Origin: Vairimorpha necatrix
Lineage: Eukaryota
DNA length: 64,000 nucleotides
NCBI GenBank assembly: GCA_036630325.1
Contig: CP142733.1
Span: 682,001 to 746,000, forward strand
Direction: 5' to 3'
Shown here: one piece after another, positions 3,393 through 58,721 of the stretch
How the letters are laid out: each line of letters opens with the position of its first letter
How positions within the stretch are numbered: the stretch's first letter is position 1
Program-made: the position numbers and the translations under genes
Notes under the pieces: model-generated
The model's input: the letters and a program-made list of their open reading frames with translations, nothing else
Databases searched by the model: none
What the model was told of the DNA's origin: nothing

Positions 3393-4028
3393 ATGATTTT
3401 ATTTTCTTTTCATCTATTAGAATTCCTATGTACTGACATACTTTTTATTATTCGAAAAGATGAAAATTCTGAAATTTACATTGGTACAGATAAAGAAATT
3501 AATGTCGAGCAACCATCATCTCAATATATTTTTGAAATAACTGAATCAAATAAGTTTGATTTAGAGAAATCAGGAAGAAGAAAAAAATTAATTCAACCCC
3601 CTAAATCTCGCAATTTTTTACCACTGAGGTATAAGGATAGACAAGCATTTAATAAAAAAGTGATAAGGATTGATTATGAAACCGATGAAGAACTTTATCT
3701 TGCTTTCAAACTTGTGGATGCTAAAGTTGTATTAAAAACTATATTTCCATACGATTTAAAAGAACAATTTTATATAACAGCAAAGAAAATATCACCCGGA
3801 AATACTCTTGAATATTGTTTGTCAAGTAGAGGCCTTAAGTTAAATCCAAACAAAGATATATACGAATTAAGGCTATGTATAACCAATAAGGTTGATAGAC
3901 AATTTATAATTAATCTCCCTCAGGTCTACAAGAAATACTTGGCAATTCAATCATATATAATGAGAAGAAATGAAGAAATTTACGAACAAGAAATAATTGC
4001 GTTCCAAATGGAGTATTTTTCAATGTAA
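3393..4028 (+). CDS. Family A putative secreted protein
   Basis: AACCCC-ATG; MILFSF..CTDILFI..EIYIG, VLKT motifs; closest to 5918..6553. Confidence 0.85.
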   Translation: MILFSFHLLEFLCTDILFIIRKDENSEIYIGTDKEINVEQPSSQYIFEITESNKFDLEKSGRRKKLIQPPKSRNFLPLRYKDRQAFNKKVIRIDYETDEELYLAFKLVDAKVVLKTIFPYDLKEQFYITAKKISPGNTLEYCLSSRGLKLNPNKDIYELRLCITNKVDRQFIINLPQVYKKYLAIQSYIMRRNEEIYEQEIIAFQMEYFSM

Positions 4029-5917: not shown

Positions 5918-6553
5918 ATGATGTTATTTTGTTTTCCATTTTTACATAGTATTTGCACTGGCATTATGTTTATTGATAGAAAAGATGTTGATTTTGAAAT
6001 TTACATAGGTTTTAACAATGATATTAACGGAGACAACTATTCACCTTATCATATTTTTGAGATTTCGAATTCCTATGAATTTCATAAAGCTAAACTTATT
6101 AGAAATAAAAATTACGAATTGGTTGTAAAAGATACTCAGCATCTTCTCACTCCGTTAATGCTCGACGATAGACAAATATTTGAAAAGGATTTGAAAAAAA
6201 ATTACAGTGAAAGTGATGAAAGTGTTTCGAAACTTGTTGAATTACTTTGCAAAAGTCAAGTTATATTAAGAGCGAAATTTCCATTTGATATAAATGAAAG
6301 ATTTTACATAACATTAAATAAAATCTCTCCTGATTATAACCTTGAATATTGGATAACTAGTAGAAGTCTCAAGTTAAATCGAAACCGAAATATATACGAA
6401 TTAAAATTGCGAACTATTTCAAGCTTTGATAAAAACTTTTCTGTATGTATTCCTAGGACATACAGTGAACACATAAATAGTCAATTAGAAGAGTTGGAAT
6501 TAAGCGCTAACTTTGTTCTATCAGAACTTGATGAAACTATCTATATGGAATAG
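5918..6553 (+). CDS. Family A putative secreted protein
   Basis: GCCCC-ATG; aligns along its length with 3393..4028 (FPxD..E.FYIT..KISP...LEY...SR.LKLN.N..IYEL). Confidence 0.85.
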   Translation: MMLFCFPFLHSICTGIMFIDRKDVDFEIYIGFNNDINGDNYSPYHIFEISNSYEFHKAKLIRNKNYELVVKDTQHLLTPLMLDDRQIFEKDLKKNYSESDESVSKLVELLCKSQVILRAKFPFDINERFYITLNKISPDYNLEYWITSRSLKLNRNRNIYELKLRTISSFDKNFSVCIPRTYSEHINSQLEELELSANFVLSELDETIYME

Positions 6554-15188: not shown

Positions 15189-15843
15189 ATAATACATTTG
15201 AAAATTATTTATTTAGTTTTTTTAATATTATCATGAGCCCATGAGAAAAGTCATTTCGTTTTTTTTTCCGATATTCCCTCTAATTACTTTAGTGGTCTTC
15301 TCGAGGAATTTATTGCATATACGATAGTCATATATAGTTGGAAAAAATTTATAGAGCATCATGAAAGCATAAAATTAAATAAATTTTTTATTAACCTTTA
15401 ATACTTTTCAATCACGATATTGCCAAATCAAAAATAATTTTAAATCATAGTCATTATAGTTCGCACATTTATTAGATTATATTAATGTTTATTAGTTTCA
15501 AATTCTTTTAATTAGCACATCAAATAGTATTAATTTAACAAATGTTAATTATTAAAAAATATGTTATCATTTATTTTAAAGCTTTCATAAAATTTTAATC
15601 TTATACAACTATGTAACCATTGCAAATTTAAGTTTATATAAAACAATTTTACAACTCAAAAAGTATCAGAGTCTTTTGTGCTATCCTCAAAGAAATATAT
15701 ACCTGGCGAAATTTATGTGTTTCTATGGTATTTTTTATCTAAATTTTCGGTATCTTCAAATTCTTGTTATGATAACACGAATTAATAAAATCTTGATAAG
15801 CAAATTATAATCATAACTCGAAATTTTAAATTTGAAATATAAT

Positions 15844-17509
15844 TATGATATACCAAATATCATAAAATATATTTGAAAAATTTCCCTCCAAATTCGACCC
15901 GTTTTCCCTCCAACATTTATTTAAATATTTTATCTGGAGAGGGGTACGGAATAATGGAAAGGAAGCCTAAAATGAATAATAAAAATATTTTAAATACTTT
16001 CCTCAGTGGTGGATACCACAAGTTAAATTTAACGAAGATGTATCCTATACTAAACAAAAGGATAAAGACTTATGAATCCAAAGACACGATCAGCTTTGAG
16101 ATCAAAGTCAAGGGCCTAAAAGAGCCTATTATAAAACAGTTAGAAATAATAAACTGTATTGAAGGAACCAATATGCTAGAATGGTTCAGAAAATTTGAAG
16201 AATTGAGTAAGAAAATAGAATGGAGCGATGAAGAGAATCTGTTAGTGCTACAAAATCTAGTGGAAAGTAAAGAATGGAAAAGAAAGAACAATTGTAAGTC
16301 TTATATGAAGGGTAAGGAAGAAATATTAACCGCTTTCCCTCCACATACTATATTTTCAAATGCAGGAGTTAAATTATTAGAAATTAAACAATCTAATTAT
16401 GTTTTGATAGAAGATATGATAAATGATATTTATGCCAAACTTGAAGTGGCATCTTATTTAGAAAAATATACTAAGAAGGAATATGAGAGAAGGTTTAATG
16501 AAATCTGTCTAAATGCTTTATCTGAAGATACAAAAGATTATGTTCTGAAATTAAATACTACGAATGTTAAAGACATTATTTATCTATTGGTAAGCTTGGA
16601 GAAAGAAATAGTATCTAGAATTTGAAATGATGTAGTCTTAATAAGGAATAACCGAGTCGAGGTCAAAGAACCAAACCATAGAGAGGATGGGAATAGATGG
16701 TGTAGTTTGCATCGATCAAGAACCCATAATACTAGTGATTGCTTTAAGAAAAATAAAAGTAATAAAAATAGGAATAACTACATGAAAACAGATGAAGCTA
16801 AGCGAAATAAAGATCTGTCAAGGCAAAAATGCTTTTCCATAAGTGAGGAAAATAAAAGCATTGAAACTGCCGAAAAAATAGACCACTACATCAAAAACAG
16901 CGAGTTACATTAAGAGAAAGGGTTAACGCAGATATAATTAAAGAAGCGAGCACAGATGCCGCTAAAAACCACAAGCCAAGGAAGTTAAAAACGAAAAACT
17001 CGAAGAGATAATAGTAAGAGCTAAAAAATCAACCCACGGGGACAATGTATTGAAAGACAATATAGAAAACAGCGAAGGTGAAAATAAGCAAAATCGCGAG
17101 AAAATTCTGTACAAAGTAAAATACTTTGGTAAACCAAAACTATTGAAGACTTATAAAACAAGAAAGAGGATGATAGCTACATTGGATGATATAAACACCA
17201 AAAATAGGTTAGAAACTATAAATAATGATGTTAATAATACAATAGAAGAGCCTCCAGATATAGTACCTAATATAATACCGGGATATGAAAAATTGGTTGA
17301 TAGTAAACTTTGAAGCAAAAGAAGAGGCAGATTATGATATACCAAATATCATAAAATATATTTCTAAAATTTCCCTCCAAATTCGACCCGTTTTCCCTCC
17401 AACATTTATTTAAATATTTTATCTGGAGAGGGGTACGGAATAATGGAAAGGAAGCCTAAAATGAATAATAAAAATATTTTAAATACTTTCCTCAGTGGTG
17501 GATACCACA
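15844..17509 (+). mobile_element. Non-autonomous Ty3/gypsy-like LTR element, gag only (LTR-1)
   Basis: 177-bp direct repeats 15844-16020 and 17333-17509 (2 mismatches seen); 5-bp TSD ATAAT; purine tract AAAAGAAGAGGCAG before the 3' LTR; no pol motifs. Confidence 0.92.
15954..16913 (+). pseudogene. gag: Gag of LTR-1 with one in-frame TGA (16623-16625)
   Basis: EWFRKFE..W motif homologous to LTR-2 Gag; the frame continues past the TGA into the zinc knuckle WCSLHRSRTHNTSDC; start at 15954 or 16038. Confidence 0.8.
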
Positions 17510-19544
17510 ATAATTTTTTTTAAAACTAAGTATGTTTTGTTTTCTCAGTTTACCTCCACTTCCGAGCACGTTATCTGGCCACACCACCTTCTAGCTGCCC
17601 CTTCTATGTTCTGGTCCCAGATCCCTCTTTACGAGTCCCTGTCGCTGTTAAAAGAAGATCCTCTCTTGTAAATTCGTTATAATTCTGATTTTGATGTAAG
17701 CTTTGATATTAATCGATGGGCCGTGGCATTAACAAGTTACTAACATATATTTATACATTTAAATACATCGCAGTTCCTAACTATGATTATATTATATAAA
17801 TTTAATTTTACCGTATCTCAGATAGTTTAAAAAGCATCCAATGATATTACATATATTAAATTGAAAAGTAAAATCTATAACACATAAAATAAGTCGATAA
17901 AATTATGGTGTTGAAGTATAAATTAAGAATCTATATTATCTTTTTCTTTGAATTAATTTTAAGAAGTATAGTTTTAAACTATTATAATTATCATTGTTTT
18001 AGAAATATATAAAAAAACACAACTTATTTAAAATAATAATATATTGCATGTAACATACATTTAACATATCTAGTGGCTTGAAAATGTGCAAATTACCAAA
18101 AAGCCTATTCGTAAATTGTGGTGGAGAAAAAAAATTCGCAGAATACAGTAAAGAATCCGAAGACAAAAAATAGATAAAATATGCTGGTTTTGGCTCCTCA
18201 AATCACGTAATTAGAAAGATGTAGCTCTTTACAACTCTATGCTTCAAAAAACACATGTTTTTGAATTTAATAAAGCATTCTGAGCATAATATAAACTTAA
18301 AAGTTTTTGTTTCTGTCAATTGATTTAGTGTTGTCCTTCATCCAAATTGGGGGTTTATAAAATTTAAAAATAAATATCAACAGTTTCAATTATAATTTGT
18401 CGATATTAAATATTTATTTGGTTTTTCATATTTTTCTTCCATATTGCTTAGGGTAAAATACAAAAGTTTTAAACGTTAAAAAATTGAGAAATGTCAAACG
18501 TGTCAAAAATTTAGCAGCTCTTGAGTCCTGCTGATATAATTTATAAAAAAACTTTTTTTCATGTTTTTACATGATCAATAATTAGTTATGATAAACAACC
18601 AACAATCATTTCCTCATAAGATTAGCATATTATGAAAGGCAATATAAATAAAAAATATAATTTTAAACGCTATTATATATCAAAGAAAAAGACAATAATA
18701 AAGAAGGTATAGCTTCATATAAAAAAGTTTATTTTATTGAAAGGTAAATTTAGGCGTAGGAATTTTTATAAATCAGAGTGAAAAATACTTGAGTAGTTAT
18801 GTCTTGATATGTATGTTAAGAAATAGTGAAATTTTAACAGTGTAAATTATTTTGTGGTTATTGCTTTATTTATATCCCAATCTAGGAGTTTATTGTTTGT
18901 AAAAAACATATAAAAATTCAAGAAATATACATTCACCAATATCATTCAGTAGACTCCTTATTCGGTTACAAATGTAGATTATATTTCTTAGAGAACTAGA
19001 TAAAGCTCCTGTGCCTCTTTGTTACAATTTTCATCCTTCACTCAGATATTGCTTTGATAACTCCCATGTTATATAAACCAAAATTCAATTAATTGGTGCG
19101 GTAGGATTGGTGATAAATAATACTAATAAATTTGCTAGTTAAAAAAATACAATTGAAAACAAGTTCTAATTTTTCTTTCCTCTAAGTTACACTTTGTAAA
19201 AGATATTTACAGAATAATAAGATTGTGTATCAAATAATCAATAATTGACAATTTTATGATTTGATAACAGTTTATCATGATCAATGTGATCTTAAAATCA
19301 AAAAATGAAAAAAATTTAATATTAAAGTATGGTAAAAAAGTTATTCCATAAAAAATAATTATAAAATTTGTCTGTATTCAAAACATTTCTCAAACAAAAC
19401 ATTCTATGTATCAGGAATAAAAAATTTAAAATTGATAAATCACTAATATAATATTTTATTAATAATTTTTTAAAATTAATATTTCTTACAATTATAAAAC
19501 GTTTCAGGATAATATATAAAAATAAAAAAATCACAGCAAACACA

Positions 19545-20033
19545 ATGTCAGCAATTTTCAAATTAGCTCTTTCACTCTTAGCATGGACCTTCGCTTATGC
19601 TTCTTCAGAAAAGGACATAAGTACAATTTTCCAGTATCAATTACAGGAAAATACTATCCAGAAAATATGTATAGTTAGGAAGGAAGATCTAGTATTTATT
19701 GCTTTTTTTAATGATCCGAGAGATAAGACTGAAACAAAGAAACGAATCAAACCATCCAAAAGTGAATATATCAATATAGTAAGATCTAACAAATTCATCT
19801 ATCAGAATTATATTAAATTGAGACATCATATCTCTTGTGCATTTAAAAGCATTTCCTCTCGTATTTTCTCTGTTCTATTTAAGGTGAGATCAATAAGTGC
19901 AACCATATCCTCTAATATCCTATTTATTTCTAAAAAGCTGATTAAAATACCTTCATACACATTTTGCCATCTTTATAATGAAAGTAAAGCGAGATTAAGT
20001 AATCTAAAGATGTTTCTAAGGAATAAACAATAA
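19545..20033 (+). CDS. Family B protein (signal peptide, basic amphipathic C-half)
   Basis: MSAIFKLALSLLAWTFAYA signal-like N-terminus; paralogues at 32944 and 35941. Confidence 0.8.
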   Translation: MSAIFKLALSLLAWTFAYASSEKDISTIFQYQLQENTIQKICIVRKEDLVFIAFFNDPRDKTETKKRIKPSKSEYINIVRSNKFIYQNYIKLRHHISCAFKSISSRIFSVLFKVRSISATISSNILFISKKLIKIPSYTFCHLYNESKARLSNLKMFLRNKQ

Positions 20034-20448
20034 AACTAAGTATTTTAATTTTTTGTTTTATGTTCTTATAAACTATAATTATTGAGTTATCCTATAAAAT
20101 ACATTTCATTATGGTTGGAAATTGAGTCAACTAAGTCTAAGAAATTATTGTATTAGTTTTTATCCTATACAAAATTTCTTATGTTGAATTATGTATTGTT
20201 TTATTGTATTTAAAACGAACTTTATAGTTTTAAAGATTGCCACTTAAAAATGTAAATCCATTGAATTTTTATTATGTAAAATGTAATTATTCAATAATAT
20301 TTTGTCTGTTCATAGATATTTTAGGAAATTTAAATGCAAATGACACAGTTATAACCAAAAAATATCATCTGGAAAAAAGTCTTAAAATTTTTACTAAATT
20401 AGGCAAAAATGTTTTTTGGTAAAGTTATATTAAATTAGGTTCTAAGAA

Positions 20449-21115: not shown

Positions 21116-22510
21116 ATGCAGATCGAATATTTACTCTTAGAAAAGGGGAAGAAAAAATTAATTTTAGAAGGTCATCTTTTCTTTAAAGAAAAAGATGTTT
21201 GGGAACTATCCAAAATATATTGGAAATGTGAATACTATCAAAAGTACAAGTGCAAGTGTAGAGTGATTACAATGTCTAATGGGGAAATTAAAGTGTTTGG
21301 CGAACACAACCATTCGGGGGATGCTGCTAAAGTCGAAGCCGATAAAATTAATGCTAATGTTCGAGCCTTGACAAAAAAAACTCTAGAGAAGCGCCACAAT
21401 CTATTATATCAGATTGTTTACCTCTATGCAGCCATGCTGCAGCTCCAAAATTGCCATCGATTGACAATATGAAGCGTAGCGTTCGGTATATTCGACAAAT
21501 TGCAGAAACTAGTCCGCACTCCCAAATTTGCGGCAAGAAATTACATTCACAGACGAATTTAAAGAAACGACAAGAGGGGAACGGTTTTTGCTATATGATT
21601 CTGGACCAGATGAAAACAGAATTTTAATTATTTCGACGACTCACAATTTACGGCTTTTGGCAGATTTCAAAACTGGTACGCAGATGGCACCTTTAAAACC
21701 GTACTATTATTATTTCATCAACTGTACACAATTCACGGGCTAAGACAAAGTGCTTCTATTCCCTTGGTCTTCGCTTTATTGCCAAATAAATTAGCGCAAA
21801 CGTATTCTAAATTTCTTTGCACTTTAAAAGAGTTGGAATCATCATTAAATCGCAATCCATAACTGTAGATTTTGAAAAAGCCACGATGAATGCTATTTCA
21901 GTACAGTTTCCTGGTGCAAGTGTAAAAGGATGCTTTTTTCATTTCTCACAGTGCATTTTTCGAGCCGTTCAAAATCATGGACTCAAACTACTGTACAATA
22001 CAGATCCAGAATTTGCACTGCAAATAAGATCGCTGGCTGCCATAGCATTCGTACCTTCCAATTTTGTTGTTGAAGTTTTTGAAGAATTGTCTGACAGAAT
22101 ACTGCCCATCGAAGCTCTGCCGGTCTTAGATTATTTTGAAGATACTTTGATTGGCCGCCCAAACCGAAGACAGCGTCGAGCCCCGAAATTTGCATCAGAG
22201 ATATGGAATATGTACTCCAGAACAATAGATGGTCTACCGAGGACTAACAACTCGGTCGAAGGTTGGCATCGTGGGTTCGAGTCGCAAGCTGGTGGTACTC
22301 ACCTGAATATTTGGAAGTTTATCAATTGCTTAAAAAGGAATAATCTCTAAATGAAGTTCGAATAGAACAATTTTTGTCTAATTTTAATGCTCCAACGTCT
22401 AAAAAAAAATATCGCGATTGTAGAACGAGACTTCTAAATATAGTGTCCAATTTTAATCGAGAAAATATTATAGAATATATTCGTGCCATTGCCCATAATC
22501 TGACATTTTA
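21116..22510 (+). pseudogene. FLYWCH-MULE transposase, frameshifted
   Basis: YWKC..CKCRV..HNH (FLYWCH); WYADGTFK in a shifted frame near 21675; DFE, GCFFHFSQC, RTNNSVEGWH; split over at least 4 frames. Confidence 0.9.
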
Positions 22511-27844: not shown

Positions 27845-30597
27845 ATTTATTGAGTTAATTTTCAATTATGTTTAGATATTCATAGCACAGCTTTCCCCGG
27901 TATCGCTCATGGGATTCAGCTCTTCACAGACTTTGGTTTCTGTGGAATTATTAATGTTTTCCAACTTCACTTTAGCAGCTTCATTCCCCTTTGCCGACAC
28001 CACTTCTTTAACAGTCGCCATATTCGCTAGTGCGCTTACAGCTCTAGCCACTTCTTCTTCTCCTGCATCCTCCTGATCGTATCCTCGTCGTCGTTCCAAA
28101 GAGATGGACTCTAGAGTCTTCTTCATCACAATAGACTGGATATATGCTTCCAGGTAGGGTTGGATTTCTAGCTCCCTGATGTACTTTCTGTGATATTTGG
28201 TCACCACTCCATCCCATGTCATTACATAAGGAACTATTCTTGTCCGGGATTTATGTATTAGTCCCAGTTCATTTGCAAGAAGGTCATATTTTCTTAGTTT
28301 TTCATTCTCAACTATAGTAAGTCGATCCTGGTTGGTTATACCAACTTCAACTATTAAAATTTCTTTCTTCTTCTTGTCAAACACAAGAATATCAGGCTTA
28401 TTATGGGTTACCTTTATATTAGTGGATATTCTCGTATCTACTCTTATTTCTGCACGATCATTTTCCATGATCTCTTGTACTGAGTGTCCACGTATTTTCT
28501 TTGTCTTCTTAAACCCATATTTAATACATAGTAAGAGATGAATGCATCTAACTACCTCGTTGTGTCTTTTCATATAATCAAAACCCAACATTCGATCACA
28601 CTTGGTAGCTAAATGATCCACGGTCTTCCTATGAGATCCACAATGGGACATTGTCCCTCTTGTCCACAGAAGATATTTCTATCCTGTAGGAAGCAGTAAA
28701 TTGCTTCAGATCTAGCCTGATTGTTTCCTTTAACCAGCCAGGTAGAAGAGTCCCTAATGCTTACTAAATCATTGTCCCTAGCTTTAAACAACTTTCCATG
28801 GTTTGTCCTTATGTTAATTTTGTTGTAAAGCGCTTCTTTTTGGGATTCTATTAGCATCTTCTGGGTTATCTCTCCTACAAAGCTATACCTAATCCTTAGA
28901 TACTCGTTTATTGTAAACAAGTGGGATTTGCTCTCTGCCTCTACTTTAAGTATCGCTGCCCGTCTTAGTGAGCTATTTCTAGACTCATCTAATGTTTTAT
29001 AAATATTCAGAAGCATACTTTCGCTTCTATCTTCGATACTTATGAGGCCTCTGCCCATTTCGGATCTAGGAAGGTATAGTCTTTCCTTGCAGGCTGGCTG
29101 CAGATGGACCTGGTACTTGATAAGTACCTGTCGGATATCAAAATCGAGACTTTTGAAATCTATTGGTTCTAATTTTAATAATCCTACATGATAGTTTATT
29201 ACTGATATTGCATGCTCGTTTATAGCTCGAATCATATTCTTACCATTTAATTGAGTCTTGCACAGTTTTTCAACCCTCTGTAGGATCTCACTTCTTACTT
29301 TTTCAAAAGTCTCTCTTTTGATAGCACTAGAGGCATCTTCTGTTATTCCAAGGTATTTGTATCCTTGATGCCCTTCTAGTACTACTGCATCTTCACTACA
29401 ATCACTACAGTTAGTTGCAGACTTACTCCTATTCATTTCTAAACCTACAGCAGAGAAAAACTTTTTAGTTTCCTCTTTCATCAGTTTTAAAACGTCATCG
29501 TTCTCTGCTAGGAGCTTAAGATCATCAATAAATAGAAGATGGTTTGTTACATAAACACTCTCGTGAGTCTGTATTCCTACTTTTGGGTAAGTTGAATTCA
29601 GTTTCCTGCTCAACGGGTCCATACATAGTACAAACAAAAGCGGCGACAGGGAATCCCCTTGTAATATGCCTCTTTCAATCTTCTTATTCAGTATCGTTTC
29701 CGATCCTGATTTTATCTCAATGTGCCACCTTTTAACCGTGGCTTCTAAGAATTTACTTATCCATTGAGGGAGATTCAACTTGCTAATACATGTTAATAGA
29801 TAAGAATGGTCTACGGAGTCGTAGGCTTTCTTTACATCTATCCACATAGTCTTCAGCTTGTTTCCATGCTCCTTATTGACTGCTATATTAATCATAGCTT
29901 GCTCTTTTGCTCCTTGGACTTGTCTAACTGTCCCTAGTTGGTTCTCTGCTAGTAGCCCTCTACTTTCTACAATTAGCTGCATTACTTTCGTAGTGCATTT
30001 CGTTGTAAGCTTGTAGAGGTTCGACATACAGGTAATAGGCCTGAAATCATTACCAATAGTGGGGGTACGATGGGTATTAAATAAGTAATCCCCTTGTAGA
30101 ACCAAGCTTCGGGTTCTTTCCCATCCAAGCATACTTCCTTAACAATCTTGTAAAGGAATGGATGTAGAGCTTCACACTTCTTAATAAAGAAATTGAAGAT
30201 TCCATCACAGCCTGCAGCCTTCCAATTTGGTAAATATTTAATAATATCTACAAATTCTTGCAAGGTTGGGAAAGTGATCTGATCTTGGCTATCAGGAATG
30301 TATTCTAGAAGATACTCCTCGAAACTATTGCAGTCTTCGGATTGCTCTTTCTTATTCCACATGGTAGACCAGAATGAACTAATATCTTCTTTACTTACTT
30401 TATGAGTAACCTCATTGGCACACTTGAGTTTTCTATAGAAATTGCTTCTATATAGCTCAAAGTTTTGATTTTCACGCCTATACTCTCTGCGTCGGTCTGC
30501 GACCTCTAGCTTCCTTGAGTATATGGCTTTCCTCTCGTTGAGTATAGCAATGGCTTCAGAAGTATCTCGGTGTAAACATGCAAGCATGTATCTCAAA
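27845..30597 (-). mobile_element. 5'-truncated non-LTR retrotransposon, RT + restriction-like endonuclease (R4/Dong-like), two frameshifts
   Basis: NWKAAG.DG, FRPIT, DVKKAYDSV, GILQGDSLSPLLF, LFIDD, YKYLG; CCHC finger, RHN, KPDI..E endonuclease; ORFs 29982-30596, 28609-30132, 27872-28651. Confidence 0.93.
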
Positions 30598-34830: not shown

Positions 34831-34998
34831 ATAATCTTATAACTAAATTATAATTTTATTAATTTTTATAAAAAAGAAAAAACATATGTATATATTATTT
34901 AATGAAATTAATCGGACAGCAGTATATTTTCTGAGGTTTAAATTTGATTAATATAATACATATAATAATTACAAGAACAGAAATATAAAATTTTGAAT

Positions 34999-35070
34999 GT
35001 GCCCTTAGACCAGTGGTAGAAGGCGATGCTTCCATTGAGCAACGGCTGGGTTCGATTCCCAGGGGCACCA
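34999..35070 (+). ncRNA. Degenerate tRNA-like sequence (Pol III A/B boxes), head of putative SINE
   Basis: A box TAGACCAGTGG, B box GGTTCGATTCC, T stem CTGGG/CCCAG, acceptor GTGCCC/GGGCAC followed by CA; D stem and anticodon loop non-canonical. Confidence 0.75.
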
Positions 35071-35790: not shown

Positions 35791-35940
35791 TCTAATTCTT
35801 AATATTTGTTCTAATCTTGAAGTTCTATTTCTCATTTTGGGGGTAAAAAATAAATAATATTTTTAACGTATATAATACGACATAATATGTTTTATTATGC
35901 ACATGATCCAAATATAATAAAGATAATTTTAACAAAAACA

Positions 35941-36428
35941 ACGTCCACAGTTCTTAAATTAGCTCTTTCACTCTTAGCATGGACCTTCGCTTATGCTTCT
36001 TCAGAAAAGGATATGAGTACAACTTTCCAGTATCAATTACAGGAAATATTATCAAGCAAATATCTATAGTTAGGAAGGAAGATCATTATTTATTGCTTTT
36101 TTCAATAATCAGAAAGATAAGACTGAAAATAAAGAAATGAATGAAACCATACAAAAGTGCCTATACCAACAAAGTAAGATTTAATAAATTCATCTATCAG
36201 AATTATGTTAAATTGAGGCATCTAATTTCTTGTGCAGTGATAAATATTTTCTCTCGTGTATCCTCTATTCTGTTCAAAGTTAGATCGATAAGTGCGACTA
36301 TATGTTCTAATATTCATTTTGTTTCTAAAAACTGATAAAAATTCCTAAAATCACATTCTTTCGTCTTTATAATTGAGGTAAAGCGAGATTTAATAACCTA
36401 CCATGGATTTCTAAAAAATAAACAATAA
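35941..36428 (+). pseudogene. Family B pseudogene (close copy of 19545..20033)
   Basis: ACG in place of ATG, frameshifts; LALSLLAWTFAYASSEKD identical; 3' flank similarity continues to about 36600. Confidence 0.85.
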
Positions 36429-37456
36429 AACTAAGTATTTTAATTTTCTGTTCTATGTTCTCATAATTTATGTTGATTGAGTTCTATTAAAATATACATT
36501 TTATTAAATTTGGAAATCTATTCAACTAAGTCTAATGAATTATTGCATTTGATTTTTGTTCTATATATTTTTTTTTGATGTTGAGCTTTGTATTGTATAA
36601 TTATATTAAAAGTCCGATATATATTTTGCCATGAAAAATAAATTCGCAATAATGTAGAGCAACATATGATAGGATGAATAATTAATTGGAATGTAACTTT
36701 ATATCAGCTTCATAATCATAGATAATAAATTTTAATGTGGTTTTATTAATTTTATATTTTATAACAACGTAAGTTTATTTAGAAGTAATATGCTAGAATA
36801 TTAAGTCTATAACTTTTTTTGATCTTATGTCGCCTCAAATTTGATAAACCTTTCTAATTATCAGACAATTGACATCAATTTTAATATTTTATCTTTAATT
36901 GTTCTATATTGTGCGTTTATTATGTCTATAAAACTCGCTAAAATTTCATGATAAGATAAACAATTATTATTTATCTCAAATATAATTTAACTTGTCTATC
37001 TACTTAAAATGGTTGATGTTTTTTATAAGAGGTTTAGTTACTTGTTGATCTCTAGTATAGAGAAAGTGATGTATCAGATGACAACAGAACAAATCTAATC
37101 TTTTGATTGAAAAGTACAGTGTTTTTATCGATAGCATACTAAATTAATCTTCATTAATAATAATATTGTAGAATACATTTTTTTTGTTCGTATGATAAGC
37201 CTTTTATCATGATAACGTGGTGCACAAATATTTATACAAAGAACAGTCATATATTTAATAGCAAATCGTAAATTTTCTGATGATAAAGAATAATCAATAT
37301 GATTTAAGCCCATTGAATAGGTTTACTAGATATTATTAAATATAACATTACGGATTTTTATTTAATTTTCAACATTTTAAAAGCAAAATTTTTATATATG
37401 TTAAATTAAATGTGTTTTAGTACATAAATTAAAGTCTATTTTTAATTTAATATTTT

Positions 37457-40756: not shown

Positions 40757-43700
40757 CTAAACTATTTTAATGTCGAACAAAGATTCCTCGTCATCTTCAT
40801 CATCATATTCATCCTCACTACTTATAACGATATATTTATCATTTTTCTTTTTATCCCAAAAAAAATTCCTACATTTTGCATTGAATTTACTCGCCAGTCC
40901 GAAAATGATAAGAATTAATATATTTAGCACTGCAAATAATAATGCCCAACTTGGTTTAAAAAAATCCCATAATGCTTTCCCAACCTCTTTTAAATTATCT
41001 AGTATATTGGATCTTTTATTTTTATTTTCTTTTTCATTAGATTTTGTCGGCTTTTTTTCTTCTTTTGATTTTTTATTTTCAGGAGGTTTTGTGGTCGACT
41101 TGCTTTTTTCTTTTTTTGGAGATTCTGTTGTTTTGCGTCCGTCCTCAGTTGACTTTTTATTTTCAGGAGGGTTTGTGGTCGACTTACTTTCTTCTTTTTT
41201 CGGAGATTCTGTTGTTTTGCGTCCGTCCTCAGTTGACTTTTTATTTTCAGTAGGTTTTGTGGTCGACTTACTTTCTTCTTTTTTCGGAGATTCTGTTGTT
41301 TTGCGTCCGTCCTCAGTTGACTTTTTATTTTCAGGATGGTTTGTGGTCGACTTACTTTCTTCTTTTTTCGGAAATTCCGTTGTTTTGCCATTGCTCTCAG
41401 TTGAAGAACTTTTATCATTTTTTCTTCTTTCTACGGATTCTGTAGAAAACTTATATTCTTCTTCATCATATGGTTTAGTAGACTTCGACCCGTCTTGTAT
41501 TGAACTTTTATCTCCATTAGTTCGTTCCACTGGCTTTGTTGTTGATTTGTTTTCTTCGTCGGTTTTTTGTTCAACTGTACTAGATTTAATCGTCTTCTTT
41601 TCTTCTTTTGTTTTTGTTGTCGAATTGGAATTTTCTTCTGATTTTTTTGTTTCTTCTTTTGATTTTGTTATCTTATCTTCACTTTCTGATTTTGTGGAAG
41701 GCTTTAATTCGTTTGTTGGTGTTGTTACCTCTTTATTTTCATCATTATTTTGCCGTTCCGTTGTAGATTTCGTTGACTTATTTTGTCTTTCTGATTCCGA
41801 AGATGATTTTTTTTCTTGTGGTACGCTCGTCGTTGACGAATTATTCGAGTTTTCTTTCTGTTGTTCTTCTACTGTAGATGTCGTTGGTTTGTCTTTATCA
41901 TCTTTATTAGGCTTTTTATCAGTCTTAGAGTTATTTTCATTTTGTGATTTTTTCTTATTGTTTGGGGAAGCATTCTTACCATTTGATGTAATTTTTTCAT
42001 TTACTTCATCTTTTATCTTTGTAATTATTTCAGAACCAATTTCAAAACCCACTTCGGCTGCTATTTCTGAACCAATTTTGGTTCCTTTTTTGACGGGTTT
42101 AACTACTTTGCCTATTGCTTTTTTGGCTGCCAATTTTGCTGCTTCGCCTCCCACTTCAATGGCGGCATCTTCTACATAATCTATGACATCACCAGCTACC
42201 TCTATAGCTTTTTTACCTAACCTACTCAATAAACCTGGCCCAGATGATTTAGTCTCTTGATTGTTTTTGTGTTTCCTTGGGCCCTTATTATCATATTCAA
42301 CACTATCTTCCTCACTACTATCATTTATTCTTTTTTTTCTTTTTGTCTTTTTTTCTGCTGTATTTTCAAAAGGTAAAGTTTTACTAATATTAGTCTCAAG
42401 AATCTCTTTGTTTGCACTACTCTTGTCATAATTATGTGTTGTTGTTGGAGTCGAATCAACTTTTAAATTAGTTTTATTATTTTTATTTTCGTCTTTATTT
42501 TTGCTTATGTCATCATAATTAAAATTGATGTCAGTAATTTTGGTCAAATCTTCTGTAGTCTTATTATACTTACTTGCATTAGTAGTAATATTGTCGTTTT
42601 GTGTAATTTCTTCATTTAACCCAGTATCGAAAATAATATCGTCTTGTATTGTGACAGTAGATTTATCTTCTTGTTTAGTAATTTTACTAGTCAAATTATC
42701 TTTTTTTGTGGTTTCATTTTCGACTGACAACTCTTTAGATGTTACATCTTCGATTTTATCTATCTGTTTTTTATTACTATCTTGTTGATTTTTTTGAACT
42801 TCCGAGGAAACTTCTTTATTATTTCCCGATCCTTTTTTTATTCTATCTGCAAATGTTTCTGACGCCGTATTGATATTATTTTCTTGGATTCCCTCATGTA
42901 CTTCTTCTTCATCTATTTTTTTAAAAGTATCCGGAATATTTTTATTTGCGTCATCATAATGTTCAAGTGGTTTATCGTCCGATTCATATTCTTCGTTATT
43001 TTGTTGGTTTGAGTTGTGGTCATTTTCCGCATCTAGACGTTCGTTTGAATCTTCGATTGCCATATATTTGTCTTCTAAATCATTTCCCGGATCATTTGAA
43101 TTTTGTTCATCTATATCATCTGTTTCTAAATCATTATAGGCTAAAGAACGAAGAATATCATCTAAAATATTTGTATTATCACTAAATTCGTAGTTTTTAT
43201 CATTTTTCGAGCATCTATTTTTTATTAAAAATAACCCCGAAGCTGTATCCAGCATCAATTTTTTCATGTCAGGCATCGTTCGCATTTTTTTATTACTAAA
43301 ATAGAATTTTTTAATAAATCTATCAATGTTTTCATCAAATTTATACATTATGTCATCGAAATCCATAAAATCTTCTTCCTTTTTTATTTTTTTCCCTTTA
43401 TTATGTTTGGAATTTTTTATAATAGTACAATCATTAATACTATTCCATAAAAGATTTAATTCTAAAGGAGTAAACAATTTTTTGAGAAATTTAATATCTG
43501 ATAATTTGATAATTAGGTCAAAATTATCTACCACAAAATATTTTAGTTCCTCATAACACAGACGTTTAGCGAATGGGATTAATATGTCACTGTCTTTACA
43601 TGCATATCTTTTTATAGAATTAAAAAAAATAGATTCTATTTCAGCTTGATGTAAATTACGCAATTTTTTTTCAGGATAAATATCATGCATAATATTATAT

Positions 43701-44077
43701 GCCTTTTTTCTTTCGAGTACTTTTCTAAAGAAGTCGATTAACACTAATTTAAGTTTGTGTTTATTTTTGTAATTTATATTAGCACCTTCTTCATCTTTAT
43801 TTGTTTTTTTCCTATTATTTTTAGATTTAGTTTTTCTATTCAAATATTTCAATCTTTCCAAATCATATTTTCTCGGATTGTATGAAGGGTCGAGATCATA
43901 TTCTTGATATTTTAATGGATTATAACTACTTTGGTTTTCTAAATATAATCCGCCAATATTTGGAATTTCAATTCTATGTGTTCCATTGTGGATATCAATC
44001 GTATTATAAATATTGCTCATTGCGCACTGATGAAATTTAAAATAAAATAGACTCTTTAAGAATTTTTTTAAAAGCAT
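40757..44077 (-). CDS. Large putative surface/membrane-anchored protein with S/T/K/E-rich stalk
   Basis: 1106-aa ORF; ACCCCAT before ATG; possible short signal peptide; single C-terminal TM (WALLFAVLNILILIIFGLA) and acidic tail. Confidence 0.9.
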   Translation of the reverse strand: MLLKKFLKSLFYFKFHQCAMSNIYNTIDIHNGTHRIEIPNIGGLYLENQSSYNPLKYQEYDLDPSYNPRKYDLERLKYLNRKTKSKNNRKKTNKDEEGANINYKNKHKLKLVLIDFFRKVLERKKAYNIMHDIYPEKKLRNLHQAEIESIFFNSIKRYACKDSDILIPFAKRLCYEELKYFVVDNFDLIIKLSDIKFLKKLFTPLELNLLWNSINDCTIIKNSKHNKGKKIKKEEDFMDFDDIMYKFDENIDRFIKKFYFSNKKMRTMPDMKKLMLDTASGLFLIKNRCSKNDKNYEFSDNTNILDDILRSLAYNDLETDDIDEQNSNDPGNDLEDKYMAIEDSNERLDAENDHNSNQQNNEEYESDDKPLEHYDDANKNIPDTFKKIDEEEVHEGIQENNINTASETFADRIKKGSGNNKEVSSEVQKNQQDSNKKQIDKIEDVTSKELSVENETTKKDNLTSKITKQEDKSTVTIQDDIIFDTGLNEEITQNDNITTNASKYNKTTEDLTKITDINFNYDDISKNKDENKNNKTNLKVDSTPTTTHNYDKSSANKEILETNISKTLPFENTAEKKTKRKKRINDSSEEDSVEYDNKGPRKHKNNQETKSSGPGLLSRLGKKAIEVAGDVIDYVEDAAIEVGGEAAKLAAKKAIGKVVKPVKKGTKIGSEIAAEVGFEIGSEIITKIKDEVNEKITSNGKNASPNNKKKSQNENNSKTDKKPNKDDKDKPTTSTVEEQQKENSNNSSTTSVPQEKKSSSESERQNKSTKSTTERQNNDENKEVTTPTNELKPSTKSESEDKITKSKEETKKSEENSNSTTKTKEEKKTIKSSTVEQKTDEENKSTTKPVERTNGDKSSIQDGSKSTKPYDEEEYKFSTESVERRKNDKSSSTESNGKTTEFPKKEESKSTTNHPENKKSTEDGRKTTESPKKEESKSTTKPTENKKSTEDGRKTTESPKKEESKSTTNPPENKKSTEDGRKTTESPKKEKSKSTTKPPENKKSKEEKKPTKSNEKENKNKRSNILDNLKEVGKALWDFFKPSWALLFAVLNILILIIFGLASKFNAKCRNFFWDKKKNDKYIVISSEDEYDDEDDEESLFDIKIV
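41065..41400 (-). repeat. 84-bp (28-aa) coding tandem repeat, about 3.5-4 copies
   Basis: KKEESKSTTNPPENKKSTEDGRKTTESP; GTGGTCGAC recurs every 84 bp. Confidence 0.92.
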
Positions 44078-54330: not shown

Positions 54331-55344
54331 GGCTAAAGTTAGCTTTAGCTAACAAAAATGCATATAGGGTTTTTTTTCTTTTTTTTGCCCCTTTTTTTAA
54401 AAAATGGAGGAGACAATTATGACTAGAGCAGAAATGGAAACAGTCTATAATATTTTATTTGACAAAAAAAGAAACAGTTATCCAAAGTGTGTAACGGTAG
54501 AATGAGGTTGCTTAGTAAACAGGTCACTATCTTAAAATGTACTTGGAAGAACTGTAAGAAGACATTTCAATGTGGAAAGGCACATTCTTTGAACTTTAGA
54601 CTCGATCATATCACAATTTTGCAGATACTTAATTTGTGGCTTCTAGGATATCCTCGTTAGTATATTAGCCAAATTTTATGTTGTTCAAAACCTTCAAAAT
54701 CGTTTAATTTAAAAAAGCTAAAGCAAATAGACATTTATGATAAATATTTATCATCTTTGGACAAGATGGGCGGGGAAAATATTATATTAGAAATAGATGA
54801 AACTAAAATTGGAAAAATAAGTATAATAGAAGTAAACTAGTGAAAGGGTTTTGGTGTTTTGGAATGATAGAGCGTTTTTTAAAACGAACTATAATAATTA
54901 CGTATATTAAAAAAAGAGATAAAAAAGCACTTACTGACCTTTTATTTAAATATGTGAGCACGGAAAGTACTATATACAGCGATATGTGGAAGGCTTACCG
55001 TTCCTTGGGTAATGATTTCGAGCAACATCACATGGTCAACCACTCATTACACTTTCGAGATCCTAATACTGGGGTTCATACCAATACCATAGAAGGTAAT
55101 TGAGATCACTCAAAAATTCTATACCTAACCGAAATAGGTCTGCAAATAGTGCCAAATTTTATTTATTAGGTATACTTCGAAGAAATGCATCTAATTCTGT
55201 TTTTGATGCATTTTAAATTTATTGTTCTGATTTTTGTTTTTGTTCCTTCCTCATCGTTTTCTCTCCTCCATTTTTTAAAAAAAGGGGCAAAAAAAAGAAA
55301 AAAAACCCTATATGCATTTTTGTTAGCTAAAGCTAACTTTAGCC
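54331..55344 (+). mobile_element. Decayed Merlin transposon (inner)
   Basis: Near-perfect TIRs of about 80 bp GGCTAAAGTTAGCTTTAGCTAAC; EIDETKIG, IYSDMWKAY, VNHS, GVHTNTIEGN; no matching TSD. Confidence 0.88.
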
Positions 55345-55885: not shown

Positions 55886-56393
55886 AACGGTGACGATTAT
55901 TAATTACAAATTATATATTGTACACTTTTGTTTTGTTCTAGTCTAAAAAATTATTTAGAGCAGATTTCTAATTCTTCTCTGGTTCGAATTCTTTCCTCTA
56001 TTTTTTTAAAAAGGGGCAAAAAAAATAAAAAATCCTAGTTCAAAAATTAGGACCTAAAGTTCTCTTTAGCCCGAAATTTTGTTTTTCTAATTGACGTAGC
56101 CCAGAGGAGCTACCTCTGTGTGGTATCCCGGGGAAGTCCTCCCGGTGATAAAGTACCACTCTAAAATAGAATTAATATATTTACTTTTATTTTTAAATGT
56201 CCCTTTGGACTCTCTAATAGCTCTCTTGTGGCTATCCTCAAACACTCCTTGTGTTCGTCTCTCGTTCATCTTTTCGTACCCTTCTTTTTATGAAAATTAT
56301 TTATAACAAATAATTTTCTAGAAAATTCATTTTTACTAAAAATGAGAAAATTGACATGTTGTAGAAATACAGTCTACAACATCCTGCCCCCTC

Positions 56394-57350
56394 TCAAAGT
56401 TTTAGTTGTTTTCTATGAAACCATCCTGCTAGTCCATATACCTTATACCATAATCCATTTTTCCCTTTTTCGCATACTTTGTATGGACCTATAAATTTTT
56501 TATTAAGTTTGTTTGTCGAGATGTTCCTCGCATAGACTAGAACTTCGACCTTATTTTTCTGCTTACACATTTTTATCTTGGTCTTTTTCTTTCTTGGCCG
56601 ATCTGATGCATTAAAAATTACCTTACTTTTATAAGGATCATAAAATCTTATTTTTGAAATCTTATCTCGATATTTTACTACAGGGTTAACCTGATCTTTT
56701 GTTTTATCTTTAATAATTTTACCAGTTTTACATTCTGTTACTACTTTCTTATTTTTATTCTTTTTAACCCAATTTTGTTTTCCAAATACTGTATTTCTTT
56801 CTTTCTTATGTTTATTCCTACCCAATTTCACATTACTATCTTTCGTTTTGGCTGTATAATTATTTACTTTATTATGATCTTCATTTTCAATTTTTTCATC
56901 TTCCACTACGCATAGTCTTTCAATCATTATTTCGTCCAATGTTTTTTCCGCTACCTCTTCATACCCAATGATTTTGACAATCTTCTCGTTCACAATAACT
57001 ACCTTATTTTTATAATCTAAAATGCAATTGTTGTTAAACAAGAAATCGCTGCCTAGAATCACATCATACATGCATCTATCAAAGACGTATGGTTCAATAG
57101 AGTAACTCTTGCTTACTCCTTCAAATTTAAAGTCTAATTCTGTTGACATATTAGTGGAAATAACTTCTCCATTGGCTATAACCGTTCTTATAGATTTGTT
57201 TTCTCTAAGCTTTAAATTTAATCTTTTAGCTAATCCTTCAGATATAAAGCTTCTGCTTGCTCCGCTGTCTAACAAAATGTTCACGTTACTTTCCTTAAAA
57301 TCCTCTAACAACCATTTCTCTAATGTTGTCTTTTTCTTCTTCCATGACAT
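56394..57350 (-). CDS. Truncated pol: aspartic protease + Lys-rich linker + integrase C-terminal GPY motif
   Basis: LLDSGASRSFI, DVILGSDFL, KLNKKFIGPYKV; no RT, RNase H or DDE core. Confidence 0.88.
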   Translation of the reverse strand: MSWKKKKTTLEKWLLEDFKESNVNILLDSGASRSFISEGLAKRLNLKLRENKSIRTVIANGEVISTNMSTELDFKFEGVSKSYSIEPYVFDRCMYDVILGSDFLFNNNCILDYKNKVVIVNEKIVKIIGYEEVAEKTLDEIMIERLCVVEDEKIENEDHNKVNNYTAKTKDSNVKLGRNKHKKERNTVFGKQNWVKKNKNKKVVTECKTGKIIKDKTKDQVNPVVKYRDKISKIRFYDPYKSKVIFNASDRPRKKKTKIKMCKQKNKVEVLVYARNISTNKLNKKFIGPYKVCEKGKNGLWYKVYGLAGWFHRKQLKL

Positions 57351-58320
57351 TCATTTCATTTCTTCTTGGTAAATCCCTATAGTTTTGATTTCCTTTTTCT
57401 TTATTCATGAAGCAATCAACAGAATTATGTCCGTTGTGCTTGTGGTATTTGCACCACTTCTTTTGTGTTGAAAAGTAATTATTTTTATGTGTTCGTTCAA
57501 ATGTTTCGAACTTTTTTGAATCATTTCTTGGATTATTTAAATTAAGTATTTCTTCTTCCATCGTTAACAATTTCTTCATATATTCCTCAAGGTTGTGAAC
57601 ATTGATATTATCAATTAATTTTCCTCTAGTGTTGTCACCTAGCCCATTCTTAAAGTACTCCCATAATTTTCTGTTATACTCGTCCTTGTTTATCTTATAT
57701 GCAAGACTATAATATTTAACGTACTTATTAATGTACTCATAGTATTCCTTGATGGTTACAAAATCGATTTGTTTTGCATTAGTAAGTTTCTTAATCCATC
57801 CCTCAGCTTTCTTCACGCTGTATACATAACTGAAAATTCTTTCTTGTATTTTATTTAAATCTCCTTTAAATATTTTGTCGTCTAAGGACTTATCAGAAAT
57901 CAAGTCTCTTAGTATGAGCTCATATTGCTCTGGATTCCATTTGTTTCTCGTGGTAATCTTCTCAAATGTTTTGAACCACTCATACATATCAAATTTTTGA
58001 ATATCTTCTATAATATTCAGTTCTTCTTCAATTTTAAATTCCGTTCCTGGAATAGTGTAACTTAATTTAATTTTCTTCTGGTTTACTTCACCATAATTAG
58101 TTTTATTATCATTCATTAATACTTTTATACTCGAACTTGGTACTCCTACACTCGCTCTTGAATTCAAGTTGTGGTATCCCGGGGAAGTCCTCCCGGTGAT
58201 AAAGTACCACTCTAAAATAGAATTAATATATTTACTTTTATTTTTAAATGTCCCTTTGGACTCTCTAATAGCTCTCTTGTGGCTATCCTCAAACACTCCT
58301 TGTGTTCGTCTCTCGTTCAT
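57295..58320 (-). CDS. gag: Gag of LTR-2
   Basis: EWFKTFE..W; FKNGL; zinc knuckle WCKYHKHNGHNSVDC; start at 58320 (in LTR) or 58116. Confidence 0.88.
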   Translation of the reverse strand: MNERRTQGVFEDSHKRAIRESKGTFKNKSKYINSILEWYFITGRTSPGYHNLNSRASVGVPSSSIKVLMNDNKTNYGEVNQKKIKLSYTIPGTEFKIEEELNIIEDIQKFDMYEWFKTFEKITTRNKWNPEQYELILRDLISDKSLDDKIFKGDLNKIQERIFSYVYSVKKAEGWIKKLTNAKQIDFVTIKEYYEYINKYVKYYSLAYKINKDEYNRKLWEYFKNGLGDNTRGKLIDNINVHNLEEYMKKLLTMEEEILNLNNPRNDSKKFETFERTHKNNYFSTQKKWCKYHKHNGHNSVDCFMNKEKGNQNYRDLPRRNEMNVMEEEKDNIREMVVRGF

Positions 58321-58721
58321 CTTTTCGTACCCTTCTTTTTATGAAAATTATTTATAACAAATAATTTTCTAGAAAATTCATTTTTACTAAAAATGAGAAA
58401 ATTGACATGTTGTAGAAATACAGTCTACAACACTCTGGATAAGTATAATTCAATGTAGTTAATGATTTTATTAATATTAGATGACCCTCGTTGGGCATCT
58501 GTGATGGGATACTGATCCCTGGCTTGGTAGCCCTTCCTTGGTCTATTTTTCCAAGGGTACTGATCGCTTGTGAATTTCATAATCTGGTGTGGGGGTCAGG
58601 GCAAAAAAGAAATAAATATTCGATTTTTGGAATAGACCGGTCGAATGGTCTATTTTCCAAAAAGGGAAAATTGATAAAATAGAAATAAATAATTTGTGGT
58701 ATTTATAATACCACACTAATG

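Follow-up and report, generated by a model that had tools for sequence, protein, structure and literature searches.

A covarying palindrome within gag at the primer-binding-site position of microsporidian Ty3/gypsy elements

Long terminal repeat (LTR) retrotransposons of a microsporidian Ty3/gypsy clade carry, in the sequences compared here, a 12-nt palindrome at the position of the primer-binding site (PBS), and this palindrome is clade-wide, covarying, self-complementary and contained in gag. We describe it from a 64,000-nt stretch of the Vairimorpha necatrix genome (contig CP142733.1, positions 682,001 to 746,000; the whole stretch is hereafter the window), which is A+T-rich (22-33% G+C) and contains a pair of short LTR elements, one on each strand (element 1, +; element 2, -). 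The features of these elements and of their family match Ty3/gypsy, namely TG...CA LTRs, a 5-bp duplication (element 2), microsporidian Gag homologues and polypurine tracts. With modest confidence, we read the palindrome as the primer-binding site of the clade, at which selection keeps self-complementarity rather than a match to a host tRNA, and at which two RNAs would pair and a cut would supply the primer.

A palindrome one nucleotide after the LTR

On the + strand, positions 16011-16033 read ...GGATACCACA-A-GTTAAATTTAAC, and the - strand of element 2 reads ...GGATACCACA-A-CTTGAATTCAAG, the LTR end GGATACCACA being common to both elements. The two 12-mers differ at four positions, which make up two compensatory pairs. 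The sequence confirms what the original prediction, made from the letters of the window alone, had said of them, i.e., that both are perfect palindromes at these positions, one nucleotide after the LTR, and differ by two compensatory pairs. It had also said that neither full element has a TGG-initiated PBS; no TGG-type tRNA site follows either LTR in the window, but the elements are deleted rather than full (1669 bp for element 1 and 2319 bp for element 2, by repeat ends). Within the window, the loose pattern TTNAATTNAA occurs at chance level (32 found vs 32.8 expected), and perfect 12-nt palindromes number 104 in 64 kb, many of them within TA runs, or about 0.16% per position. Here, the palindrome stands at the identical offset in two elements whose Gags are homologous but distant (25% identity, E 7e-14).

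Scanning prokaryote genome contigs with a polyprotein alignment gave 62 Ty3/gypsy-like loci, which are evidently eukaryotic contigs binned with bacterial metagenome-assembled genomes (MAGs). Four of them (L133-L136) match a microsporidian polyprotein along its whole length (E 1e-165 to 2e-81), and their Gag is of the same family. L135 is a clade member whose contig begins 3' of the site and which thus falls outside the junction set, as do L155, L161, L162, L165 and L167, in which the Gag likeness is weak. The 12-mers of the remaining three (L133, L134 and L136; Table 1) are all perfect palindromes, mutually different, one nucleotide after a terminal CA and within a gag frame whose start is in the LTR; a polypurine tract precedes the 3' LTR in each. 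Distinct 12-nt palindromes in these whole loci number one, two and four, respectively.

A perfect palindrome one nucleotide after CA, different in each case, is therefore present at 5/5 DNA junctions (the two of the window and the three above). When the five junctions are aligned under a six-pair structure, all 30 cells pair, and four of the six pairs change on both sides (8 cells in total), including the innermost, which is AU in three DNAs, CG in one and UA in one. None of 500 shuffles equalled the covariation score, and sliding the 3' partners by 1-3 columns lowered pairing to 20-47% of cells.

L133-L136 themselves are whole or nearly whole retrotransposons of the clade, found in contigs titled as Clostridium and Anaerovoracaceae; they have the appearance of eukaryotic sequence mis-binned with bacteria. 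L134 and L136 have a C-rich motif ahead of the start codon, a feature that we take to be typical of microsporidia. Other scans were less productive. Metagenome scans with the JGI proteins P0145 and P0027 found no relative, the polyprotein alignment run on viral contigs returned 12 Ty3/gypsy or caulimovirus-like loci (L121-L132) of which none belongs to the Gag clade, and a 14-mer of the U5 end (U5 being the unique 5' region of the LTR) gave only chance matches in bacterial contigs when compared with the genome contigs. A copy of the element 1 12-mer in the viral-scan locus L131 lies within an unrelated open reading frame (ORF) and was taken as chance.

Both gag ORFs of the window extend past the LTR end and across the palindrome, with an identical frame in each (G-Y-H-K-L-N-L-T in element 1 and G-Y-H-N-L-N-S-R in element 2), the 12-mer supplying the last letter of one codon, three whole codons and the first two letters of the next. 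The site is consequently recorded in part in homologous proteins. Searched exhaustively with HMMER, the Gag of element 2 has 167 homologues at E<=0.001; 150 of them were listed, and 30 were looked up by name. The closest among those listed is from V. necatrix (64% identity), and by these homologues the window is microsporidian, close to Vairimorpha/Nosema. The named homologues come from at least 10 microsporidian species, among them V. necatrix, V. apis, Nosema granulosis, Dictyocoela muelleri, D. roeselum, Edhazardia aedis, Anncaliia algerae, Pancytospora epiphaga and Nematocida minor, alongside unnamed metagenome proteins. A second protein homology search with this Gag found no match at 187-597 aa, and the Gag alignment gave P0144 only.

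For each pentapeptide aligned to N-L-N-S-R, we tested whether some back-translation under the standard code gives a perfect 12-nt palindrome in the same register. Such a back-translation exists for 2474 of 74013 pentapeptides (3.3%) when every pentapeptide of the 150 Gag homologues is taken as background. At the site placed by phmmer alignment, 23 of 27 were compatible, the four misses being two alignment slips of 1-3 residues and two spurious second alignments. With a profile hidden Markov model (HMM) built on the Gag N-terminus, the site could be located in 42 proteins (domain E<=0.01), and 40 of these were compatible (27/28 outside the HMM training set). In the two misses, P0030 and P0040, a compatible pentapeptide lies five residues upstream, right after the conserved G-Y, as judged post hoc. 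With duplicates removed, 25 of 27 pentapeptides were compatible, whereas column shuffles, in which residues were swapped among sequences (n = 20000), gave a mean of 9.9 (standard deviation 2.1) and a maximum of 18, so that none of the 20000 reached 25. The signal is therefore one of covariation, beyond a merely conserved peptide.

The implied palindromes take 15 different forms, with pairs 1, 2, 4 and 6 variable and pairs 3 and 5 invariant. Leu at place two pairs with place-five residues whose codons can begin with A, and Met or Ile at place two with T-starting codons at place five (F, Y, C, L, S); in outer-codon terms, M is matched with F/Y/C/L, V with L and I with S. Where place two is Met, place four is Ser without exception. 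The codon preceding the site can end in C in every case, and the junction codon can begin with A in 25/27 of the HMM-placed sites, the exceptions being the misplaced P0030 and P0040; back-translated in this way, the C-ending codon and the A-starting junction codon are the terminal CA of the LTR. In L133, L134 and L136, the palindromic synonymous codons are the ones used, as predicted from the protein test. What had been proposed from two elements, a covarying palindrome in place of a tRNA primer-binding site, holds across five DNAs (30/30 cells) and is compatible with 40/42 Gag homologues, and the other LTR families in which palindromicity and covariation were checked agree, with three palindromic DNAs and 25/27 compatible deduplicated Gag sites.

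As controls, we used eight other Ty3/gypsy loci of the same scan in which the contig contains the two LTRs and these are at least 93% alike. TGG was found within -2..+3 of the LTR end in 7/8 of them and a palindrome at the site in 0/8, the best reaching 4/6 pairs. Left out were L140, L168, L186 and L191, whose repeats (79-90% alike, up to 1.9 kb) we did not regard as LTR pairs, and L123, L124, L125, L128, L152 and L161, whose repeats are contig-end overlaps only. TGG after the LTR is absent in 5/5 of the clade DNAs. The longest complement of spacer plus palindrome in the element's own LTR measures 5-7 nt in all five elements, as it does after shuffling (mean 5.3-6.2, maximum 8-10), in agreement with the earlier observation that the LTRs hold no complement of the 12-mers. 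Complementarity of the site to the window's single predicted tRNA (tRNA-Met) does not exceed 4 nt; together with the many different site sequences, this leaves the absence of a tRNA explanation standing. That tRNA-Met (CAT) was called by ARAGORN at 34998-35070 (+), while the Rfam scan of the whole window found no family at gathering score, even for tRNA; the tRNA may be degenerate or unusual.

The palindrome as a proposed self-complementary primer-binding site

In reverse transcription of LTR elements, the 3' edge of U5 marks the position of the 3'-OH of the minus-strand primer. The primer must then pair with the nucleotides just after the LTR and, since these nucleotides are complementary only to themselves, the simplest primer would be the element's own RNA. 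Two molecules are favoured over a hairpin because the innermost pair, which could not form in a hairpin, covaries. Predicted energies of RNA homodimer versus hairpin are -9.4 vs 0 kcal/mol for the element 1 12-mer and -13.8 vs -1.0 kcal/mol for that of element 2. As for folding of the monomer, some predicted folds show a U5-leader stem around the palindrome or pairing of the transcript 5' region with the leader; these differ among the five elements, and most z-scores are weak, lying between -0.3 and -2.9 apart from a single value of -4.5.

We envisage that two co-packaged genomic RNAs would pair via the palindrome in a 12-bp duplex, that one strand would be cut at the 3' edge of this duplex, as is done by the RNase H of Tf1, and that the new 3'-OH would be extended across the spacer, U5 and the repeat region (R) of the partner RNA. 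RNase H could then trim the donor RNA down to the 12-nt palindrome, as the resulting strong-stop DNA would be complementary to the donor's own U5-R. Finally, the plus strand would copy the 12-nt RNA, restoring the site for the second strand transfer. In such a scheme, priming would be obligately intermolecular, with the cut genomic RNA priming its partner from a site written in gag. As the self-complementary site lies in gag coding sequence, protein and RNA duplex would evolve together. That this amounts to a clade-wide third priming mode, beside tRNA priming and the Tf1 type, is a more tentative proposal, which we would neither assert nor dismiss. Pairing of two genomic RNAs, with a cut supplying the 3'-OH, had been put forward in the original prediction and is also our preferred reading; covariation of the innermost pair speaks for the pairing.

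Several points weigh against this reading. We infer the cut, the priming and the RNA dimer, all three, from sequence. Only five junctions have been seen as DNA, and the three beyond the window come from contigs filed under bacterial MAGs; outside these five, back-translation shows that a palindrome is possible rather than present. P0030 and P0040 are not compatible at the residue chosen by the HMM, and their upstream rescue is an after-the-fact judgement. The 12-bp A+U-rich duplex of element 1 is weak (-9.4 kcal/mol), and both window copies are defective, such that any activity of their own would depend on a helper. Moreover, the donor RNA would be destroyed, whereas no cut may occur in the template RNA, which needs its own site for the second strand transfer; the model leaves this asymmetry unexplained.

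In a rival reading, the palindrome is a signal for dimerisation or packaging only, with reverse transcription primed by something else. Covariation at all varying pairs, including the innermost, fits an intermolecular duplex, and both the palindromes of the retroviral dimer initiation site (DIS) and Ty1 PAL are known dimer contacts. However, a dimer site needs no register, and this one is fixed one nucleotide after the terminal CA in 5/5 DNAs; the same fixed register appears in the proteins, where a C-ending codon is always possible and an A-starting junction codon in 25/27. The LTR boundary also places the primer 3' end on the palindrome, and no second site such as TGG is present. We consider a role confined to dimerisation unlikely, although by no means far-fetched. 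Fold-back self-priming in cis, in which a single RNA is cut after the palindrome and the small hairpin primes itself, would yield a product identical to that of the two-RNA model, and a 4-bp local hairpin at the palindrome appears in 4/5 monomer folds. It is improbable in view of the energies, 0 to -1 kcal/mol for the hairpin against -9.4 to -13.8 for the dimer, and of the two innermost pairs, which a hairpin loop would free but which stay complementary, the innermost covarying (AU, CG, UA). Self-priming of the Tf1 type, in which the 5' end of the same transcript folds back onto the site, has a precedent in Tf1/sushi elements, which are likewise without a tRNA site and use 11 nt adjoining the LTR, according to the parts of a review that concern them (PMC7175516). 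The Tf1 model does not require a palindrome, though, and complementarity within the own LTR extends over no more than 5-7 nt, at the shuffled level, in all five elements, making this route highly improbable here.

Perfect palindromes are typical for dimeric DNA-binding proteins, and the site might instead act at the DNA level, by binding a dimeric host factor or the integrase or in some other DNA role. Positions 3/10 (T-A) are indeed constant, and positions 5/8 read A-T throughout, in the five DNAs as in the 15 implied palindromes. At a protein site, one would expect the letters to be conserved, whereas four of six pairs vary here with the symmetry intact; the constant positions are explained by coding too, position 3 being explicable as the second codon letter of a hydrophobic residue, and the element would still be without any primer site. 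We find a DNA-level role distinctly improbable. A host tRNA, tRNA half or other host small RNA as primer merits very little credence: half-tRNA and internal-tRNA primers are known for copia and Ty5, but there are at least 5 real and 15 implied site sequences, with each of the four letters occurring at the first position, and one host RNA does not fit them all. Complementarity to the window's predicted tRNA-Met stops at 4 nt and, by reasoning, an even-length perfect palindrome cannot centre on a tRNA arm with an odd-numbered loop. Finally, chance or a by-product of a conserved Gag peptide is hardly credible. The L-N-S core is common in the family and one coding of L-N-S is palindromic, yet column shuffles reach at most 18/27 against the 25 observed, residue changes are matched across the palindrome centre, and the real DNAs use the palindromic synonymous codons.

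Two deleted elements and their surroundings

Table 1 Coordinates of the two window elements and of the three further junctions. Positions for L133, L134 and L136 refer to those loci.
Feature	Position	Strand	Remarks
Element 1, 5' LTR	15846..16020	+	175 nt, TG...CA; TATA-like box inside
Element 1, GGGTAC box / complementary box	15943-15949 / 16041-16046	+	
Element 1, gag ORF	15954..16625	+	ATG inside LTR, frame continues through palindrome
Element 1, spacer nucleotide A	16021	+	between LTR terminal CA and palindrome
Element 1, perfect 12-nt palindrome GTTAAATTTAAC	16022..16033	+	primer-binding-site position, gag frame K-L-N-L-T
Element 1, polypurine tract	17317..17331	+	immediately 5' of 3' LTR
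Element 1, 3' LTR	17335..17509	+	175 nt; repeat alignment
Element 2, target-site duplication CAGAG, upstream copy	58433..58437	-	5 bp
Element 2, 5' LTR	58170..58432	-	263 nt, TGTTG...CCACA; TATA-like box
Element 2, GGGTAC box / complementary box	58322-58328 / ~58131-58137	-	
Element 2, gag ORF	57295..58320	-	341 aa, start codon at 58320 inside LTR
Element 2, spacer nucleotide A	58169	-	single nt after LTR
Element 2, perfect 12-nt palindrome CTTGAATTCAAG	58157..58168	-	primer-binding-site position, gag frame N-L-N-S-R
Element 2, second ORF	56394..57350	-	frame different from gag; aspartic protease fused directly to integrase C-terminal piece
Element 2, polypurine tract GAGAGGGGGCAGGA	56382..56395	-	adjoins 3' LTR
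Element 2, 3' LTR	56119..56381	-	263 nt; repeat alignment
Element 2, target-site duplication CAGAG, downstream copy	56114..56118	-	5 bp
L133 junction	4121, repeated at 117 (contig end overlap)		LTR end ...GGGCACGGCA; spacer T; 12-mer TATGACGTCATA
L134 junction	437		LTR end ...AACATGACA; spacer T; 12-mer GCTGATATCAGC
L136 junction	1927		LTR end ...CACACGACA; spacer A; 12-mer GATGAATTCATC

In element 1, the LTR pair is 99% alike (direct repeat called at 15842-16021 / 17331-17510). The interior at 16626-17316 is decayed gag sequence without protease (PR), reverse transcriptase (RT) or integrase (IN), and Gag homologues match the element by tblastn over 15870-16874 only. A target-site duplication was looked for at its TG...CA ends, with no clear one found. 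The LTR pair of element 2 is likewise 99% alike (direct-repeat search, end alignment). Its Gag has a zinc-knuckle-like C-x2-H-x4-H-x4-C motif close to the C-terminal end, and its second ORF matches the Pfam families Asp_protease_2 (2.8e-11) and RVP_2 (7.9e-11), with a weak match to SH3_Tf2-1 (0.0074, below cut-off). By ORF list and Pfam, RT, RNase H and the integrase core are absent from both elements. The gypsy domain order PR-RT-RNase H-IN is seen in a relative, the N. granulosis homologue P0004 (PR 321-410, RT 536-692, RNase H 759-881, IN 946-1117), whereas the window copies carry gag and protease only.

Contigs from two public runs hold many copies with 80-100% likeness. In run X2, two contigs connect 56113 directly with 58433 and omit 2319 nt, with five letters fitting both sides; the joint, which skips element 2 and one copy of the duplication, looks like an empty site, although weakly so, because its shorter side holds only 22 letters. 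Taken together, the 99% likeness of the LTRs, the many copies and the possible empty site are signs suggestive of recent activity, and the cis elements look usable, judging by the LTR pairs, the target-site duplication of element 2 and the same joint.

The gag and protease ORFs of element 2 overlap in different frames (57295-57350, -). Contigs of X1, X2 and X3 have two extra letters near 57298-57302 relative to the window copy, and the frame break may for that reason be private to this copy. In run X1, summed contig depth is 10-100x higher at 58438-58700, 56088-56181 and 58156-58249 than in the element 2 interior. These parts correspond to the last ~80 nt of the LTR and the DNA flanking the element; the U5 end seems common to many more copies or families, and element 2 seems to lie inside another high-copy repeat.

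A conserved GGGTACG box and a TATA-like box precede the gag ATG in both LTRs. The GGGTAC box upstream of the gag start is complementary to a GTATCC/GTACC box 8-20 nt 3' of the palindrome (Table 1). This contact is paired in the predicted folds of element 1 and is inconsistent across the five elements; the pairing may represent a long-range contact of the 5' leader.

Elsewhere in the window, mobile DNA is represented by a broken non-LTR retrotransposon at 27872-30596 (-), whose ORF has an RT domain (Pfam RVT_1, 1.9e-28) and overlaps, in a different frame, a downstream ORF that has the look by eye of a restriction-enzyme-like (PD-D/ExK) endonuclease and no Pfam match. DNA-transposon remnants lie at 21116-22350 (+) and 54840-55103 (+), with a FLYWCH zinc finger (1.5e-16), an IS1595/ISXO2-like transposase piece (1.6e-12) and a partial MULE transposase domain just under the cut-off (6.1e-06). 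A 1106-aa ORF without Pfam family at 40757-44077 (-), overlapped on the opposite strand by a 469-aa ORF, contains four tandem copies of an 84-nt unit (40974-41393, 66-100% alike). Three collinear blocks at 19516-20161 are repeated at 35912-36556, 16395 nt apart and with 81-86% identity, the first copy overlapping a 162-aa ORF; this arrangement suggests a dispersed repeat or an old segmental duplication. Two 211-aa ORFs without Pfam family, 2.5 kb apart at 3393-4028 and 5918-6553 (+), are 76% alike in part of their DNA (3724-3870 vs 6258-6404) and are probably a tandem gene pair.

Significance and comparison with known systems

Priming of the first strand in LTR elements is treated as settled, with tRNAs or pieces of tRNA as primers and self-priming of the Tf1 type as the sole exception. 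A site that is family-specific yet always self-complementary across the elements of a phylum points to another solution, one that would link genome dimerisation directly to priming. In practice, annotation tools based on the PBS would miss or misjudge elements of this clade, which make up a large share of the bigger microsporidian genomes, and the combination of terminal CA, one nucleotide and a 12-nt palindrome in the gag frame could serve as a marker for intact 5' ends. Pairs of sites that are complementary to each other but not to themselves offer a clean genetic test.

Two familiar arrangements each share a part of what we describe. In Ty1 of Saccharomyces cerevisiae, translation of Gag begins within the 5' LTR and the gag coding sequence contains the primer site, much as we propose for our elements; Ty1 differs in being copia-type, with a primer site complementary to the initiator tRNA-Met. 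The retroviral DIS and Ty1 PAL are self-complementary RNA sequences that join two genomic RNAs, but they are additional to a tRNA primer site, occupy other parts of the leader and mostly consist of 6 nt in the loop of a hairpin, unlike the microsporidian palindrome, which occupies the primer-site position itself.

Parisot et al. (2014; PMC4202319) described microsporidia-specific Ty3/gypsy groups with a single gag-pol polyprotein, diversified in A. algerae, E. aedis, Nosema and Nematocida, and by all appearances the window elements belong to the same groups; in the main text of that paper the terms PBS, primer and tRNA have 0 occurrences each. An element without recognisable PBS was reported by Novikova et al. 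(2010; PMC2864245), in the part of that paper that describes it, and the section of a review dealing with Cryptococcus Tcn2-5 cites a proposal of novel priming (PMC7175516). In the openly readable literature, i.e., excepting subscription papers such as the one with the first description of Nosema bombycis LTR elements, we found no description of a palindromic primer site in microsporidian or Ty3/gypsy elements. The original prediction knew of no description of such a scheme; the idea in general does have a precedent, in a palindrome at the PBS position of fungal GalEa copia elements (PMC5445492, in its account of the site).

In Tf1 of Schizosaccharomyces pombe, RNase H cuts an RNA duplex and thereby frees the self-primer, as set out in the passages on Tf1 of PMC7175516. 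The likeness to Tf1/sushi elements, as far as those passages describe them, is considerable, since they too are Ty3/gypsy-type, lack a tRNA site and have a short site adjoining the 5' LTR (11 nt in Tf1, 12 nt here), and the primer is the element's own RNA, as it would be in the microsporidian elements. The difference lies in the partner. The Tf1 site is non-palindromic and pairs with the first 11 nt of the same transcript, whereas the microsporidian site has no complement in the LTR and pairs with itself, so that its partner must be a second RNA copy or a fold-back.

Besides Tf1, the closest precedent is found in the fungal GalEa elements, for which the relevant sections of Donnart et al. (2017, PMC5445492) report a conserved palindromic site at the PBS position with paired substitutions, propose this site as a replacement of the PBS and state that no described model fits; a paper on bivalve TRIM elements cites the GalEa work in the portion that touches on it (PMC6934838). 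On that account, the GalEa site (Conserved Hairpin Site, CHS) resembles ours in the lack of a recognisable tRNA site, in the palindrome at the PBS position and in its paired changes. GalEa elements, however, belong to the copia superfamily and to Pezizomycotina, whereas relatives of the microsporidian elements have the gypsy domain order. Their palindrome is described as 10 nt long and includes the last A of the LTR, compared with 12 nt after a 1-nt spacer here. It also forms a hairpin by pairing with a second sequence, of 9 nt, located 12-41 bp downstream. By eye, a downstream partner of this kind is missing from element 1 in the window, and element 2 has just the 6-nt AACTTG/CAAGTT. The sections of PMC5445492 on the site make no mention of its lying within a coding frame, unlike the microsporidian site in gag. 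Side by side, the two systems raise the question of whether palindromic primer sites have arisen more than once. Among self-primed LTR elements, the palindromic site of microsporidia would be a new form, for which copia elements provide a partial precedent in position.

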